Shown here: in pieces, positions 1,121-59,500 of the stretch | Position numbering within the stretch: position 1 is the stretch's first letter | Layout: each line of letters begins with the position of its first letter | Assembly (NCBI RefSeq): GCF_009834535.1 | Contig: NC_045696.1 | Location: 6,698,001 to 6,762,000, forward strand | Direction of reading: 5' to 3' | DNA length: 64,000 nt | Origin: Camelus ferus | Taxonomy: Eukaryota | Notes under the pieces: model-generated | Seen by the model: only the letters and a program-made list of their open reading frames with translations | What the model was told of the DNA's origin: nothing | Databases searched by the model: none | Position numbers and translations under genes: made by a program

Positions 1121-2662
1121 GGCATCTCTTCTCACACCAGTATTTGGGTCATACTTAGCTTCTTGCATTTATCAACCTGCCCTGTCTGTATCTCATCTTG
1201 TGAACCTTTCCTACGGTGTGAGCTCTCTCCAGAATTATCATGAATTATCACACATACACGTATGCACGTGCATTTGTGTGCATGCACACGTGCACACACA
1301 CATACACACACTTCCTTCCTGGATGCTCCCCCACTTTCCACTTGAAAAACTGAGCAGCCTCACCTTTGGGCTTCACGGATCTCATAGATAAGTCTGTCTT
1401 GGTGTCTATGGTTTAACTGCTCTTACTTGTATACCTTTATGTCTTCATTTAGACTGTATCCTTTTTGCTTGTATAAGGCCATGTTGTGAACCTGTATGTC
1501 TAGCAAATACCACAGCAGCAGGAAAAGAACTGGCACAATCATTGTGTGTTGAGTTAGTTCATTGAATAAACATCTCCTGTGCTCCAAACACCTCTACAGG
1601 TCTTGGCTCAGCTGATCCTTGGGACTGAAACATCAACCACTCTGGCTTGAAATCCAATTTGTCACAACCCTTTTTTGTATTATGTGAAAGTTTAATGTTC
1701 ACAAGGGCTTGTAAACATTAAAATATGAGTAACTCATCAATAATCCTTTTCCATGATAATCAAAAGGCCATGATGAACATTTATGTAAATCAATTTTCAT
1801 CTTAAATCACCTCACTTTTTTCTAATTACTTGGTGTCAGTGAAAGTCAATACCATAAGTCTTCTGAAATTTCCTAACCATAAAGTAATTTGCAGTTTCCT
1901 CCTCATTTATGCACGTCATTAATAGCTTTATAATCTATAGCAAAGCTGAAAGCACCCAATGCCTGTTAATGCTAACCTTCGCATAAGCTCACTTACATAC
2001 CATTTCTCCAACTTACCGTTCCCCGGGCCCCTTTCCCCTAAACATGATGAGAAATTCAACTCAGGGAATAATGATTCTGATGATTTATTCAAATATTACT
2101 GTATGAATAAAATTTTAGTGTTACCTTTAGCTTACCCTATCAAAAAATATAAACGACTCAAATATGTCAAAAGTCATTAAATTATCAACTTCATTTCAGA
2201 AGCCTATTAACCCATTAAGCACTCAGATGTAGCTATGATATCTCATAAAGGGCTAGCTGACAAGGTTCGGAGGCCTTACGCATTAAGTGGCCCAGCAGGT
2301 TGACATATCAGTTGGGATTCTTGGGTCGTAAGCAGCAGACATTAACTCTGTCTAAATTAAACAAGAGAGGGATCTAGTGGAAGAATATCAAGTGCCCAGG
2401 GTGTCAGTGCGGGAGACTGGGGACTTGGTCTTGGAAACAGGCAGGACTATGGGCAGCTCCGGGAGGAGAGAATGTAGGATTAGCTGGGAGGTCCCATGGC
2501 AAGAGGGCTCTGGTCAGGGGTCCTCCTGTCACAAGTGAACTCCAACTATTTGCATTTTCTCCCTTCTGCTCAAGATCCACTCCTAGGGATAATGTGTCCA
2601 ATTCGTTGGGGTTGGGTCACACCTGCCCCTCATGTAAAGGAGCAGAATTCTGTATTACAATC

Positions 2663-53180: not shown

Positions 53181-53452
53181 ATATCAGCATAAATGTCACC
53201 TCCTCCTGTTACCCTGTCACCCCTAATATCCATCACCCTATTGGAATTGTCTGCAGAGCAAATATCACCATCCTTTTTTTCTCTTTTTTATTGTCTGACT
53301 TGGCCCCTCACTAGACTGTAACCTCTGGGGTCCACACGCCCACAAACTCCCAGGTTTTCTCCATCCCTGCGTCCCAGTCACCAGAATGTGCCAGAGATTA
53401 TAGAAGCTCCATAGATATTAGTAAATAAATCGAAGTGAATGAAGTCAACAAA

Positions 53453-53488
53453 ACACGCGCGCGCGCGCACCCACACACACACACACGC
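53453..53488. repeat. (CG)6 plus (CA)n alternating purine-pyrimidine tract
   Basis: ACACGCGCGCGCGCGCACCCACACACACACACACGC. Confidence 0.9.
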
Positions 53489-53961
53489 AAACTGAACTGG
53501 TCATCATCCAAAATGATTCAGGCCTTTTCTGGGCTGCTCTGTGCCCGAGGCTGCCCCCCGCCCCTGGCCCCGCCTGCACCACCAGGTCCTCTGCGTGGCT
53601 GCTCATTGCTCCTTCAGTAAATGAAAGGACAGGACAGAGCAAGGGGGCAGGACCCTTGTTCCTCTGACAGCCCCTCCCTGAGCTCAGACGACATCTCTTG
53701 TCCCTCATTCGCCAGGCCCAGGACTGAGAACAGCTTCCCATGCTGTTCGTACCTGGGAGCCCCCATCCCTGGTCTTACCCTCCCACCGCCACAGCTCAGG
53801 TGTCTGCCTTCATCCCAGTTCCTTCACCTGCACCATTTGGATGACATGCTTCTAGTTGAAACCTTCTCTGATGTATCCAGCAACTCCCCAACTTTGTGTA
53901 TATGACTTAGGATTCTTCTGGATACATACAGGTGGTGTGTGAGTAATTTTTTTCTTTTTCC

Positions 53962-53967
53962 TTTATT
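53962..53967 (-). terminator. Polyadenylation signal of the retrocopy with adjacent decayed poly(A)
   Basis: TTTATT on the + strand (AATAAA on -), next to the T-rich tract 53947-53959 that ends the AT-rich UTR. Confidence 0.5.
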
Positions 53968-53988
53968 TAAAAATTATTTTCAGATTTG

Positions 53989-54078
53989 AATATCTCTTAC
54001 TTTTACTTTTTTAAGATACTGAAATAACCATTAAAATATCTCTTACTTTCACTTTTTTAAGATACTGAAATAACCATT
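53989..54078. repeat. Tandem duplication, period 46 bp, in the retrocopy 3' UTR
   Basis: AATATCTCTTACTTT(T/C)ACTTTTTTAAGATACTGAAATAACCATT at 53989-54032 and 54035-54078, one mismatch. Confidence 0.95.
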
Positions 54079-54736
54079 CGCTGTGGTCTGAGTGTACTTG
54101 TCTGTGTGCATATATGTGATTGCTACAAAAGGCATAAATTTTACTCTGTATGATTTTGAAATGTTTAAATAACAGGCACTATATTAAAATATCAAAGGTT
54201 AAAAATATGGAAAAACAGGTAACAGATGACTGAAAAATGCCAACTCTTCTAAATGAATCAATGATATTGGAACTAAATTAATAAAAAATTATGATTTTTG
54301 AGTGTTTAAAAATTTTGCATTGTTTTTTCAAGCCAATCTAATTTTAGGCAAATATTTAGTTACTTATGCAGATTTCTAATAGCTCACATCCTACAGTAAT
54401 CACATGTACTAATTTAAGCATTTTTATGAATATTTCCTTGGTGGCTTAAGAAATAGTGCCTTTTGATTTAATCAAGCACAACAACTAGACCATCTTATTC
54501 TAGTGGGTCTAAGGACATAGAAAAAATTAATCATAGGAATTATATTCAAGGAACTTTATTGGAAATAATATCTTACAAATTATATTGGTTTATCTACTTG
54601 AATAAGAACAACTAAGCTACCAATTAACTAAACAAATAAACTAAAAAGAGAAAAATTAAAATTATTTAAAGGGAGAAAATCTGCCCAGCTATTGTGCTGT
54701 GGTTGTGAGCGTCTGGACCGGCTGCTGTGAGCTGAG

Positions 54737-56250
54737 TCACACCTGCAGGTGACCGCAGGTCCCTGCTCCCTCACCGCGGTGCCCTCCTCCTTCCCGGGGG
54801 GCCTGATGGCCCAGGCCCCCCCCCCGCCCGACACTGGCGGGCCCCTGGGGGCTGTGGGCGGAGCAACAGGAGCACCAGGGCCCCTGGGGGGAGGCTGGAC
54901 ATTGGACTTGACCTGGGCCAGCACCTGCCGGGTGCGGTCACTCTCCTGTCGCAGCTCCTGGAGCTTTTTCTTGGTGGCCACCGCCGCCATCCAGCCTTCC
55001 CCAGCTCTTTTCTCTTGGAAGTGGATCTTCTTGAGGTGGTAGGAGGTGGTTCTCTCCAATTCCTCGCCTGCGTCTTGGGCCATCTTCTTGCAGAGGTCGC
55101 GCATCTGACGTGTGGAGTCCAGGTCTCTACACACGTGGGTGAGTTGCTTCTCAACTTGTAAGCAGCGAGCTTCCACCTGGGACAACTCTCTGTGAAGCTG
55201 CGTCACACAGTCGTCATAGGCGTCAGGCAGACTTTGAAGCTTCAGCTTCAGCTGCTCAATCTCACCATCGAGCTGGGAATTCTCACACTTCACAGAGGCT
55301 TCTTCTGTTTGGAGACTTGTAACTTGTGCTGTAAGCTCTTGGATCATCTGCTTTTCTTCCCGCAGGCGCCTGGCTGTCCCTGATGTTCCTCTTGGGGACG
55401 GGGAAGGGGCACACTGCGGCCAGCATCACCAGTGACGCCCTTCAGATCGCCCTCTGCCCCGTGGACAGGGCGATGGCCGTCTTCTGCCCCCTCCTTCTGC
55501 TGGATGTCTGCGCGCCCGCCATCCGCGGGGCCCCCACGGAGGCAGGGCGAGGGGCTGGCCTTCAGCAGGTGGTCTGCGATGGATCTGAGTCGGCTGATTC
55601 TGTCTTGCAGGACCTGCGCCTTTCCTGCCTTCAGCCGCTCCAGCCTCCCTCCCAGCTCCTCCTTTCCCTGGACTTGTCGCTCCCTTCTTCTAATTTCTGG
55701 GTGAAACCGTTCTGGATTTTCTGAAAAACCAACCCTTTTATTCAGATCATTCTTTTCTTTCTTCTGAGCTCGTTCTCCATTCTTCTCTGATGGTTTTAAG
55801 GTGTGTTTTCCGTCAGCGACTCGGGAGAGTTGAGGAGGCTGGCTCTTCAGTGCCTTTTCTATAAAGGCAACAGTGTCCCTCAAACAATGTCCTTCTCAGG
55901 TTTTCTTTCAAGGCCCAAAAGCATAAGACTTTTAACAAGGGAGGACTGGCCTCCGGCCCAGGTGGCTTGAGGGCTTCGTGGGCCTGAGTCGTCGGGCCCG
56001 TAGTCTCTTCACATTTTCCACAGACTTCGTCTCGGGCTGAACACGTTTTGCCAAGCGACCTCCCCCTTCTTAAAGCGTACCGTCCACTTCCTGCCAGGAC
56101 CAGCACCCCAGCACACACCAGGCTCTCCCAGCGAAGCACAGGCAGACCCGGGACGTGTGTCAGGCTTTCGTAAACAAGCAGCAGAGCGCCCCACAGGGGC
56201 TCCAGGATCAGCTGGAAAGTGGCCCCGCGGGCAGCCTGCAGGACCTCCAT
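54737..56250 (-). pseudogene. Reconstructed coding path (about 500 codons) of the cTAGE5-like retrocopy: ATG 56250 to TGA 54739-54737, with frameshifts near 55885, near 55345-55425 and at the G10 run 54825-54816
   Basis: The ATG lies in the context CCTCGCCGCCATGG. Frames read MEVLQAARGATFQLILEPLW..., then ...RDTVAFIEKALK...QEEHQG, then ...RRLREEKQMIQELTAQ...RGPPVSG, then GLGHQAPREGGGHRGEGAGTCGHLQV* (cf. cTAGE5 NPLDHQ). Confidence 0.7.
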
Positions 56251-56580
56251 GGCGGCGAGGCCTCCGCAGCTCTGCCTCTGAGGACCAGCGTCCTGTGGGC
56301 CCAACTGCCCGCTCAGAACCCTGCGGTGTTCCGTCTCCAAGGTAAGCAAGCGCCTGCCCGCCAGGGCGGGCAGCTGGGCCGGGGGAGGGGAGGCCAGCCA
56401 GGTCCTGGTCCGCAGTTGTCCCTAACGTCGCTGGCAGTGGAAAGCGACCTCACTTACCCAGGCCCTGGGGGAGGGGGAGGGCTGAGCACAGCCTGGAGCT
56501 GGGCCACTCGAGGCCCGCCTGGCCCCACAGCAGACCTAGGGGGTCAAAGCAGGGCCAGGCCGGTCCCGTTCTGTGCCTAA
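56250..56580 (-). promoter_or_regulatory. GC/CpG-rich putative promoter and 5' UTR of the retrocopy
   Basis: High GC and CpG content; GGGCGG GC box at about 56364-56369; X-box-like GTCTCCAAGGTAAG at 56333-56346. Confidence 0.4.
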
Positions 56581-59500
56581 GAGGAGGTCAGGGCAGAGTG
56601 GTGGGGCCCTGTCCTGGTGAGAGCCAGGCTCCTGAGTTAAAGGTTCCCTCTGCTGCAGAGACAGCTGGTCCTGCCCCAGAGGTCCCGGGGATCCCCCTCC
56701 TCTGAGGCTCCCTCTTCCCTTGTGTAGGGGACTGTGGGGGACTGGGGTGAAGGGTGAAGGGTGAAGGATGTCCCCAGAGGTATTAGTTAAAAGACATGGA
56801 TTCTCATCCTAACACTTTGGGAAAATCCATTGGAACTAGCAGAGTCATAATTTCAAGTGTTCTGTGGAGCCAGCCTGTCCCTGTGTGGTCCGCGTGCTGC
56901 TGGTAGAGGGGGACCCAGCTCTGGGGGTGACACAGTCTCTCACATAGCCCTGCCATCTTCGGGAGGGTCTCCAGTCCACTGAGTCATCTTCACAGTGGGC
57001 CTTTGCGGAGGGTGCAAATCCTCCTTTTGGCTCAATTAACCAGATTTTATTTCATTAAACCACACCCGGCTCTCCTAACATCTCCATGGCCAGCCAGGCT
57101 CAGAGCCTCTAGGTCATGCTCTGGGCCTCTCCCAGGAGAGGCTGGTCTCTAGTCCTCTACTGACGTGGGAACAATGTCATCTGAGGCCAGCCCGGGGGTC
57201 CTGGAAGGTGCCAGCCTCAAGAGCTCTGTGGGACGTGGAGGGGGCTTTGGGAGCAGGGGGATACTCCCAGGGGAAGGCAGCCCCCTTTCAGGGGAGGCAG
57301 GAACCAACTCTGTACCTGCAAGTCGTCTTTAAAAAGGGTCCAAAATGGGGGGAAGAAATAATAATATTCCACCAAATACCAAATGAGTCTTGAAAGAGTG
57401 AACTAGAGTTAAGACTACTGCCCTATAGGCAGGGCCAGGGTGTTAGTGAGTGAAATGAGAAGATGCCCATGGAGACGGTTCTGAAAACTGGGGGCAGCAC
57501 AGCCCCTCCCCAGCCCCACCGGCTGGGGAATTTGCAGGAGCAACAGGGAGAAGCCTTCCCCCTCCCCTCCATCTCCTCCCTTCCCTTCTCTTCTTCTGCC
57601 TCTCATTTTGTCCTTTTCTGTTTTTTTTTTTAATTTATATTTTATCAACCTGATATTATTATTATGAGCATATATTATCTGTAACTCTTGACACGACATG
57701 TAGCCAGGTTGAGGTTTGGTCCTCCTGGTCGTACAGTGTCCCCTGAGACCTGCCCCACTGTCCCAGCATGTGAGCCACCCCTTCCTGCTTCCTCTGCCCC
57801 CCGGGCCGAGGCCCCACGTCTACTGAGCAGCCTCGGCCTCCTCCTACTCATTAGCGCACTGGCACCCAGGGCTCACATCCTCCCAGGTTCTCCTCTGCTC
57901 CCAGGCCACTTCCAGGGCCCTCCCAGGGCCCCTTCCTGTGCAGAGCGAGGCAGTGTATACATATGTACACTGAAACTGATAATGAGAACTCAATATAAAG
58001 TAAAATGCAAAAAACAAAACCCAAGAGCTCTTCTGTGTACTAGAAAAATGCAGCACCTATTAGAGGAAACTGTACAACTTTATTTAAAGGTGCATATAAG
58101 GCTTGAATAAAGGGGGAGACACTCAATCTTTCTGAATCAGGAAAGAGTCAGATGGTAACATCTCGTTTTCCTGCAGAGATCGAATCCACCCACCCTACCC
58201 CCCACCAATTCTCCTGTATCTTGACAAAGTGACTCAAAAATGTTCATCTGGAAGAATAAGTAGGTGTGAGAAGATGCGTTGTGTAGGTAGAGTGAGTGGA
58301 AGGAACACCAGCAATTGCTACACCTGTAGTACATCTGTAACAGAAGAGTTTGGTGTATTGTTTTGGCAGAACATTCAAAGGAAAAGCGAGGAGAAGGCAC
58401 ACCTTAGAAAGCAAACCCTAGTACGTATAAAACCTAGAAGGCAGTAAAAAATAAAATTACAAATAAGGAGGTTAAGAAAGGATTACTCAACATATGCCTC
58501 TGAAAAAATTAAGTAAATATTTGGGGAAAATAAAAAATAAAAAAAAAGTGAGCACCTCCTCTATAGCTGCATGATGATGTTGCAAATAAGACACGGAAGC
58601 TGGGTTCGGATCCCAGCCCCACGACGTACTTGCTGTGCAACCTTGGCGACACCCATAACCAAAGTGTGATCAGTTCCTGGCAGAACTGTGAACAGGCAGA
58701 TGCTTAACATCTGTAAAAGAAGGACATGGTGCCTGGCACATGGGATATGCTTAATAAATGACAGTTAAATTCAATGTAAAAAAAAAAAAGAAACTACATA
58801 CAATCTAGAAGATGTTTTAGGTTAATTTCTGTCTAAACATGATCTTGGAAGCAATGAAAGCAATCAACAAAATCACAGAGGGAAAATGATCACATTTGAC
58901 CACATAAAAATTCAATATCTATATGGCAGGTTACAAAAATCATGGGCACACTTAAAGTGGAAAATGCTTTCTATAAATATGATGCTCAGCTGGTTACTAT
59001 ATATAATTTGTGAAATATCATGGAAAATGTATTTAAAATTGAAATAGAATTTGTGCAAAGAATAGGAAAGATCACTATACAAAAAAAATGAAAACTAACC
59101 AAAAATTTAACATTTAAGTCATCAAATCTACCAAGTTTTAAAGTATATATTTTACCAAGTTTTGAGCAGGACATCCTGAACTGGGCATTCTAGTCTTGCT
59201 GGTGAGAGATTTAATTGGTACCAGTGCTCTGGAAGTCACTTGCTAAAATATGTCAAGAATCTTAAAAAGTCTTGTCCTTTAATATACTTTGACATAAAAA
59301 TTCCAGTTATAAGAACACATCCCAAGAACATAATTGGCTTTTGGACTAAATATGCTGCATGAGAATATTTATTACAGAATTGCTTGTAATAGCAGAAACC
59401 TAGAAACATGACTTAAAGTCCAACCAGGATGATGATATTTAACTATGGGGAGCAGGAGAGAGGATTTGGGGAGGGGGCTTATGATTAGATATAGTTTATT

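Follow-up and report, generated by a model that had tools for sequence, protein, structure and literature searches.

The DNA analysed here, referred to as the window, is a stretch of 64,000 nucleotides from Camelus ferus (RefSeq assembly GCF_009834535.1, NC_045696.1, hereafter contig 1, positions 6,698,001-6,762,000), which carries on its minus strand, at 54737..56250, an intronless gene derived from MIA2 in its short form, cTAGE5. The gene belongs to a family that is real, old and apparently undescribed in print, and whose members are already found in the databases as automatic predictions. The window locus is an ordinary member of this family, and the three frame breaks that distinguish it are probably not real. 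Our explanation as a whole, which we judge probable, is that of an open locus of a retrogene family lacking the proline-rich domain (PRD) of cTAGE5, which would encode a modulator built around the helix at the start of the second coiled-coil region (coil2), and whose frame breaks are most likely assembly errors.

The start codon, ATG at 56250-56248, was read from the sequence within the context GCCGCCATGG and is common to this locus and the intact paralogs, and the reading path closes with ...GHLQV-TGA. Given as stop-to-stop frames, the open pieces of the minus strand are 55813..56421 (piece 1, the N-terminus), 55344..55895 (piece 2, the middle) and 54628..55425 (piece 3, the coiled-coil part), a fourth frame, 54737..54937, supplying the C-terminal end. 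The frame changes were placed by aligning the window copy with seven paralogous loci of the same genome. There are exactly three, all private to the window copy: one base gained at 55876, one base lost at 55378 and two bases gained at 54825-54826. The first two cancel, so that pieces 1 and 3 lie in one frame. The missing base falls in a G run, and the last two extra bases lie inside the G tract at 54820-54834, the length of which differs in most paralogs, altering their C-terminal tails. The assembly sequence read from the ATG meets a stop after 145 residues, and the window copy projected onto the frame of an intact paralog has no stop in 503 codons. An earlier note, made from the letters of the window alone, had described this start context and an intronless path of about 1.5 kb with no in-frame stop apart from three frame changes, all of which was confirmed.

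The same note had proposed a cTAGE5/MIA2 retrogene. The BLASTP comparison of the canid cTAGE5 form of MIA2 (806 aa) with the intact paralog is colinear over residues 14-523 and 14-471, respectively, with an E value of 5e-29, and the identity is 25% overall (132/518), with 40-43% in those 30-residue blocks of the C-terminal coil that match best, which makes the earlier estimate by eye of about a third in the coiled coil a fair one. Among 10 long or mid-length hits of the protein searches for which names were looked up, eight are labelled MIA2 or cTAGE5 and none MIA3; the other two come from a squirrel (uncharacterised) and a fish (hypothetical). The camel parent MIA2 is split into at least seven separate exon matches spread over 51 kb of contig 6 (43.91-43.96 Mb), with exons 67-95% identical to the canid protein. 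These short exons were found with the canid cTAGE5 form and not with a lizard MIA2 as the genome query. The window gene is one colinear DNA block facing a multi-exon parent on another contig, as expected of a processed retrogene, and the proposed intronless copy of a multi-exon gene is thereby borne out. Being intronless and on a different contig would equally fit a recent, independent retrocopy of the camel MIA2 gene that is no member of an old family. Against this stand the 25% identity to the cTAGE5 form, compared with 67-95% for the parent exons and the same canid protein, the 58% identity to the hippopotamus family member, the grouping with hippopotamus and reindeer proteins in the tree, and the flanks that the copies have in common; the low identity to the parent and the grouping refute a recent retrocopy, to which we give practically no chance.

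The N-terminus points to the transcript from which the family started. The first 19-21 residues of the cTAGE5 form align to none of four long MIA2 proteins and are therefore specific to the short isoform, and it is to these residues (ME-, then LVLE.L), and to the anchor motif FPWE..LVCA, that the family N-terminus aligns. The best-supported history, as read from these alignments, would be retroposition of the short (cTAGE5) MIA2 transcript in a mammalian ancestor, giving a family of intronless genes of about 500 codons that would then have spread by DNA duplication, the camelid cluster being young segmental duplicates on one contig.

Human cTAGE5 is described to bind Sec12 with its first coiled-coil region (coil1, residues 61-300; PMC4164946), TANGO1 coil2 directly with its own coil2 (residues 301-650; PMC3128532), and Sec23A and Sec24C with its PRD (residues 651-804; PMC3128532). 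The family alignment ends at about residue 523 of the 806 residues of cTAGE5 and is followed by a P/G/A-rich tail of about 50 residues, so the Sec23/24-binding PRD is missing from the family; the tail has a marginal local match to cTAGE5 residues 738-785 (E value of 0.044). The coil1 equivalent is colinear but poor in conservation, with 4-10 of 30 residues identical per block and a conservation within the family of 0.27-0.35 (0.43 in one block), and AlphaFold2 gives a predicted local distance difference test score (pLDDT) below 50 for most of residues 56-283. A low-confidence helix is predicted at 41-65 in the anchor region. The only confident structure, predicted from a 24-sequence alignment, is one long helix at residues 285-450 with a pLDDT of 86-98, in which 12, 9, 4, 13, and 12 of 30 residues are identical to cTAGE5 in five successive blocks. 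Family conservation and identity to cTAGE5 peak at the N-terminus and at residues 301-330 and 391-450. A Pfam search identified no family in either the intact paralog or the canid cTAGE5 form, Pfam having no model for this family, and on the three open pieces of the window copy it returned coiled-coil noise only, all below the cut-offs. The search of solved structures by sequence yielded no match.

The earlier suggestion of a non-primate family of cTAGE-like retrogenes is supported by two protein searches, each with an intact paralog as the query. The word-indexed search returned 23 proteins of similar length, and the exhaustive one 336 proteins with E values of 1e-3 or lower, 43 of them at 1e-30 or lower. 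Proteins of about 500 aa are found in at least 11 named species from four laurasiatherian orders and, in addition, in a lemur. The named members are two Camelus ferus proteins named "CTAGE family, member 5-like" and proteins from hippopotamus (504 aa, 58% identity), reindeer (483 aa), donkey (478 aa), dingo, dog, and golden jackal (508-530 aa; dingo 508 aa), raccoon dog (467 aa), Phyllostomus and Sturnira bats (430-508 aa), and sifaka lemur (495 aa, 34% identity), together with fragments from panda and black rhinoceros. Many further members are unnamed contigs of 1.7-4 kb. The long hits are multi-exon MIA2 proteins with 25-29% identity, and the phmmer hits include proteins named MIA2 from bat, raccoon dog, lizards, crocodilians, and fish. 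The exact GHLQV end recurs in two unnamed relatives, with variants in hippopotamus (GHWQV), one Phyllostomus protein (AHLQV), and a panda-like protein (GPLQV).

A maximum-likelihood tree was built from 24 rows picked by hand from the hits, comprising 19 family proteins and the homologous part of five MIA2 proteins, with fragments and the squirrel "low quality" models excluded. The family forms one clade (support 100/100) on a long stem, adjoining mammalian MIA2 (98/97); the MIA2 proteins of reptiles and fish fall outside this grouping. Camel, hippopotamus, and reindeer proteins group together (100/99), the three camel copies being side by side, and the sifaka protein is nested in the family clade. 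Two unnamed proteins are basal. Terminal branches measure 0.1-1.0 changes per site in the family, compared with 0.04-0.18 in mammalian MIA2. The paralogs of the window copy fall inside this clade, and the window copy has their start and the same GHLQV end, which places it in the family.

In the camel assembly itself (2.09 Gb), a six-frame search with the last coiled-coil piece gave 30 matches, and the intact paralog protein gave 35 matches with E values of 1e-8 or lower, at about 23 loci. Of these loci, ten are young, with identities of 65-100%. Seven of the ten are on contig 1 at 6.04-6.75 Mb, two of them short fragments, and the others are found on contig 1 at 28.3 Mb, on contig 13, and on contig 34. 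Three copies are open from the same ATG, encoding 503 aa (contig 1, 6.04 Mb), 492 aa (contig 1, 6.47 Mb), and 526 aa (contig 13, 48.37 Mb). Two copies have in common a premature stop after residue 433, and two are evidently dead, bearing stop codons, several indels, and a deletion of 148 bases; the one at 28.3 Mb has five stops. Two paralogs in the family clade are 95.7% and 84.7% identical to the window copy at the DNA level over about 2.2 and 3.4 kb. The young copies are homologous well past the open reading frame (ORF), over 54567-56738 at about 95% and weakly again over 53521-53930, so these copies spread as DNA and not by repeated retroposition. Old subfamily copies have in common with the window the region from 54827/54953 to 56509/56594 at 66-69% identity, which is the ORF and about 300 bases upstream, and the unit common to both age groups has its end close to the stop codon (about 54827-54953).

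The contig 1 cluster also contains two units, 6474120-6478542 (minus strand) and 6607057-6611516 (plus strand), in mirror-image order about 130 kb apart, each with a full copy and a C-terminal fragment (residues ~382-503) about 3 kb away; this is an inverted segmental duplication inside the cluster. Elsewhere in the genome, two heavily stopped copies (contig 13: 28764189-28764992 and contig 8: 45359542-45360081) have 41-42% identity to the canid protein and 32% to the 500-aa family and are probably ordinary processed pseudogenes of MIA2. A second, separate family matches cTAGE5 residues 1-194 only, i.e., the N-terminus, the anchor, and the start of coil1, at 31-38% identity. It has mostly stop-free open frames of 180-310 aa, with many loci on contig 19 and about 35-40 further loci (for example, contig 19: 22794594-22798115, ORF 1309..1950, plus strand). 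The protein search with one member returned only camel proteins called hypothetical or uncharacterized and unnamed contigs, and Pfam gave no family for it.

The earlier note had called the window copy "recently or only artefactually inactivated", and sequencing reads bear directly on this. Contigs over 54600-56450 were taken from two DNA-type runs (X1 and X2) and two RNA runs (X3 and X17), representing four studies. At 55377, the entire contig depth carries the extra letter that the assembly misses (37.9 of 37.9 in X1, 53.6 of 53.6 in X2, 158.1 of 158.1 in X3, and 158 of 158 in X17), and at 55876 the entire depth is without the extra letter of the assembly (49.7 of 49.7, 33.1 of 33.1, 165.7 of 165.7, and 273.4 of 273.4, in the same order). 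Over the G tract, where usable cover came from X2 and X3 only, a locus-specific X3 contig omits two letters at 54825 and an X2 DNA contig omits three at 54824. All three breaks are private to the window copy and absent from every contig over them, in agreement with that description. A metagenome scan with a pattern spanning 55876, allowing both versions, gave no match.

Since the paralogs are without the indels too, the locus of origin of the contigs is decisive. The X3 contig over 55378-56041 carries the private alleles 55479 G, 55544 A, and 55633 A and is without the 55876 base. The X3 contig over 54931-55400 carries 55274 T and 55287 A, which are absent from the other young contig 1 copies, together with the extra letter at 55377, and the X3 contig starting at 54600 has no listed difference over the locus-specific flank 54600-54815 and is without the two extra letters. 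In X1, a contig with 55479 G and 55544 A reaches depth 16, and a paralog branch next to it depth 9. The contig tables retain minor paralog branches even at depths of 7-9, and none of these has an indel. The best share of the stretch's sampled words in any of the 24 runs listed is 0.68 (0.63-0.68 in the top 16), so a fixed third of the words is seemingly absent from every indexed animal, and the version in the assembly was found in none of them. With the frame breaks absent from all independent reads examined, the window copy is probably alive, and in other animals the locus would read as an open frame of 503 codons. We therefore take the three breaks, with moderate confidence, to be assembly errors, an allele private to the assembled animal being the second most likely reading.

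The same data contain a part of what weighs against our interpretation. Contigs can lose rare variants, so that absence from contigs is no proof, and the runs are not known to include the assembled animal. The extra base at 55876 lies outside the commonest class of assembly error, that of homopolymer changes. The window copy carries eight private substitutions besides the three indels, seven nonsynonymous and one synonymous, a ratio that fits relaxed constraint yet is indistinguishable from the neutral expectation of 3:1. Three of them (54855, 55691, and 55717) are found in no run and a fourth (54924) only as a minority in X2 (14.4 of 54 depth), and such read-unsupported substitutions fit a divergent allele or lineage as well as error. 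The assembly and the X3 version of the locus differ by about 1%, which could equally reflect another allele or lineage. These points would suit a real and very young pseudogene, in which the assembled animal or its lineage acquired the three indels and the copy is decaying, the function being carried by the paralogs. Some neighbours are disabled, too: indels and a stop interrupt the copy at 6.06 Mb, and the copy at 6.61 Mb has that same stop. On the other side, the independent confirmation of frame disruptions that a pseudogene calls for was not obtained, with three indels in the assembly and none in the contigs of the four runs, even though minor branches were kept; contigs with the private markers of the window locus are without the indels, and the word shares place the assembly version in none of the indexed animals. 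We regard decay as unlikely, though by no means negligible, and a pseudogene annotation of the window locus is unwarranted from the assembly alone.

Further differences between assembly and reads were observed in the family, and the camel cluster as a whole is a place of disagreement between the two. At 54855-56050, most differences, 10-16 of about 16-27 in each run, pair a T in the assembly with a C in the reads, i.e., A in the assembly and G in the reads on the sense strand. Private one-base indels are also present in the copy at 6.06 Mb (window-equivalent positions 55408 and 54886) and in the contig 13 copy (54902 and 54852), a hint that single-base indels of the assembly are unreliable in this family, and those at 55408 and 54886 are absent from all contigs examined. 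Two Camelus ferus proteins (P0001 and P0002) follow the unshifted ancestral frame where two assembly loci are shifted; they were considered as a test of the assembly indels and not counted, P0002 looking like a mosaic of two copies.

That the frame has been kept open is the strongest signal of selection. When the 188 differences between two open camel copies are placed at random, a mean of 6.3 stops results and only 4 of 5,000 trials are stop-free (9 of 5,000 for another pair), and the dead copy has five stops with 7.0 expected, in line with the earlier argument that a dead-on-arrival copy this diverged should carry many stops. Indels between open copies are confined to the C-terminal tail. 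The frame has thus been kept open far from neutrally. The ratio of nonsynonymous to synonymous changes (dN/dS) was calculated by the Nei-Gojobori method (NG86) and compared with a neutral null in which the same number and type of changes are placed at random, giving an expectation of 0.70, or 0.63 with CpG sites ten times more mutable. Between contig 1 copies and the open contig 13 copy (dS of about 0.24), dN/dS is 0.44-0.47 for the whole gene, where the 2.5% bounds of the two nulls are 0.50 and 0.46. By segment, the values are 0.28-0.30 for the helix (bounds of 0.38 and 0.34), 0.45 for the middle, 0.6 for the N-terminus, and close to 1 for the tail. The whole-gene dN/dS thus came out only marginally below the null, with a constraint on amino acids that is weak.

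The RNA data present a second strand. Five RNA-recorded runs hold about half of the words of the stretch, three of them labelled reproductive system; they were chosen via this gene, so the labels are uninformative on tissue preference, and contigs carry no strand information. An X3 RNA contig runs through at least 54600 in the 3' flank. The X17 contig over 56093-56341 continues with 28 letters that have a single match in the genome, 10.4 kb further on the plus strand (exon at contig 1: 6764766-6764917). The donor CCAAG/GTAAGC lies at 56341/56342, and at the distant site a polypyrimidine-CAG directly precedes the match, the acceptor being at window-equivalent position 66766, outside the window. 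This junction is a canonical plus-strand intron, so at least part of the RNA at the 5' end of the gene runs antisense to the ORF, and its source is the window locus itself. The distant unique exon itself ends with ...AAGATG/GTAAAC. The following 30 kb contain 106 open frames with 70 aa or more, of which 60 were scanned (all 56 on the plus strand and four longer ones on the minus strand); they gave no Pfam family, and neither they nor the frames scanned in the window contained a recognisable coding partner of the plus-strand RNA. The gap in X3 cover at 56212-56397, a region that the DNA runs cover, was considered as a transcript boundary and as a point against carried-over DNA, and was not used as evidence.

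The remaining counter-evidence concerns whether a protein is made and what it can do. The plus-strand splice, antisense to the ORF, is the only strand-informative feature of the RNA, and sense-strand expression is something we infer. Among the young contig 1 copies, dN/dS is 0.6-1.05 (dS of 0.016-0.04) with intervals that include 1, the dead copy yields a similar dN/dS, and the constraint on amino acids is weak and marginally significant. In all family members the anchor has a 6-residue deletion relative to cTAGE5, with the FPWE-LVCA motif kept, and its hydropathy is 1.6-2.6 across the family and lowest in the contig 1 camel copies; the Kyte-Doolittle maxima over a 19-residue window are 1.57 for a contig 1 copy, 2.15 for the contig 13 copy, 2.45 for hippopotamus, and 2.41 for cTAGE5. 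Several of these points, along with the GT-AG junction leading to a unique exon and the lack of a Pfam domain in the family, would suit a noncoding family, serving for example as promoter and first exon of plus-strand spliced RNAs, with frames that are open by chance or through GC richness. That explanation is improbable in view of the open frames, each some 500 codons long, of three camel paralogs and of the predicted proteins from at least 11 further species; random placement of changes very rarely leaves such a frame without a stop. It would also have to account for the restriction of indels to the tail, for a helix dN/dS below the 2.5% bounds, and for a start context, N-terminus, helix, and C-terminal end that are conserved across orders. 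We thus keep to a protein-coding family with an open frame at the window locus.

The features of the locus are listed in Table 1. Along the ORF and the 5' flank GC is 0.50-0.70, falling to 0.26 immediately 3'. The ORF itself has a GC content of 0.59 and an observed-to-expected CpG ratio of 0.52, and the 750 bases 3' of it have 0.26 and 0.08, respectively. The earlier description of a GC- and CpG-rich coding part and an AT-rich 3' side was therefore correct, with "CpG-rich" being relative, as the ratio of 0.52 is under the usual island cut-off of 0.6. Its reading of the AT-rich side as a 3' untranslated region (UTR) is to be taken with reserve, the stretch being common to this locus and just two others, which does not establish descent of a UTR from the parent. 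In the shared 3' flank, the length of a (CG)n/(CA)n microsatellite at 53440-53490 varies among paralogs. Upstream of the start, in-frame residues are common to proteins of other species. A Pfam search with 94 open frames of the window outside the locus, among 107 of at least 90 aa, gave no family.

Table 1. Features of the cTAGE5-like locus, in window coordinates
Feature	Position	Strand	Basis or remark
Start codon and context GCCGCCATGG	56248..56257	-	Read directly; same start in intact paralogs
ORF segment 1: N-terminus (residues specific to the short cTAGE5 isoform) and shortened hydrophobic anchor	55877..56250	-	Homology
Frame break 1: extra base, A on the sense strand, private	55876	-	Absent in 7/7 paralogous loci
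ORF segment 2: middle, coil1 equivalent, poorly conserved	55379..55875	-	
Frame break 2: one base short in a run of four G or similar, private	55377..55378	-	Base present in 7/7 paralogs
Best-kept module: long helix spanning residues ~285-450 in the intact paralog, equivalent to the start of cTAGE5 coil2	54901..55397	-	
G tract of variable length; frame break 3 is two extra bases at 54825-54826	54820..54834	-	
ORF segment 4, ending ...GHLQV, TGA at 54737-54739	54737..54824	-	Ancestral C-terminus, common to the paralog on contig 1 at 6.04 Mb
5' flank or 5' UTR, 66-69% identity even with old subfamily copies, up to 56509-56594	56251..56594	-	blastn
Splice donor CCAAG/GTAAGC, exon end 56341	56336..56347	+	RNA contig of run X17
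AT-rich 3' flank, GC 0.26	53950..54700	no strand	Common only to the loci on contig 1 at 6.04 Mb and contig 34 at 1.59 Mb
AATAAA on the sense strand	54560-54555	-	Within the AT-rich 3' flank

The function and localisation of the protein can be approached through the modules it has kept. The encoded protein retains the cTAGE5 N-terminus, a shortened hydrophobic anchor, and the helix at the start of coil2, which in cTAGE5 is part of the TANGO1-coil2-binding region. We infer from this a PRD-less partner of TANGO1/cTAGE5 assemblies at endoplasmic reticulum exit sites, which would join them through the helix. A protein without the PRD would have no contact with the inner COPII coat, suggesting a modulator role, probably in reproductive tissue. 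More speculatively, the family members may be germline-biased modulators that join TANGO1/cTAGE5 rings via the coil2 helix without COPII, and the locus may drive an antisense spliced RNA. The joint reading, in which an older PRD-less lineage, germline-biased COPII-free modulators, and the antisense spliced RNA all hold together, is possible, although we consider it doubtful. To judge from the sequence, a cTAGE5 variant with a helix of the TANGO1-binding type and without the domain binding Sec23/24 would amount to a natural separation-of-function allele.

The closest known system is the parent itself. The family proteins are colinear with the short MIA2 isoform cTAGE5 over its isoform-specific N-terminus, its anchor, and its two coil regions, and the part they keep best is the start of coil2, which lies in the region described to bind TANGO1 coil2 (PMC3128532). 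In contrast to cTAGE5, the family is intronless and GC-rich, its proteins have about 500 aa instead of 804-806 aa, and the PRD is missing. The anchor lacks six residues, conservation is poor in the coil1 equivalent, which is predicted to be mostly disordered, and the branches in the tree are 5-10 times longer. The short MIA3 product TANGO1S is similar in that its cytoplasmic coils come after a membrane anchor and the luminal SH3 part is absent (PMC5379956). It differs in having a PRD, and the names looked up for 10 long and mid-length hits point to MIA2/cTAGE5 and not to MIA3.

The predicted proteins annotated as "cTAGE family member 15-like", "2-like", or "5-like" and as "MIA2-like" in hippopotamus, donkey, dingo, golden jackal, bats, and sifaka belong to the same family. 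They have 34-58% full-length identity and the same length and layout, and several also have the same C-terminal end or one much like it; they differ in being automatic annotations, and the recent local amplification is a feature of the camel lineage. No description of the non-primate family was found in the full-text literature searched.

Human CTAGE proteins are longer, at about 745-777 aa, retain the PRD, and resemble cTAGE5 far more closely. The primate CTAGE genes (CTAGE1, 4, 6, 8, 9, and 15), which encode cancer/testis antigens, and the family described here have in common the parent gene, a history of one retroposition followed by DNA duplications, and fast evolution, a trait that the camel family would thus parallel. 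The CTAGE expansion is described as primate specific in PMC4949931 (citing Zhang and Su, Mol Biol Evol 2014), which has it begin with a retroposition in the ancestor of the haplorhines, followed by DNA duplications and by positive selection. As the present family includes laurasiatherians and a strepsirrhine, it is a lineage separate from, and older than, primate CTAGE. The evidence largely establishes a second, older MIA2/cTAGE5 retrogene lineage outside the haplorhines, PRD-less, with proteins of about 500 aa and including the lemur protein. It establishes to a similar extent that the frame has been open since at least the ancestor of camel, hippopotamus, and ruminants, and that the segmental amplification in camel is independent of, and parallel to, that of primate CTAGE. 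A parallel older family, with the same parent, growth, and fast evolution, would be a natural replicate for studying the repeated retention of cTAGE5 retrocopies.

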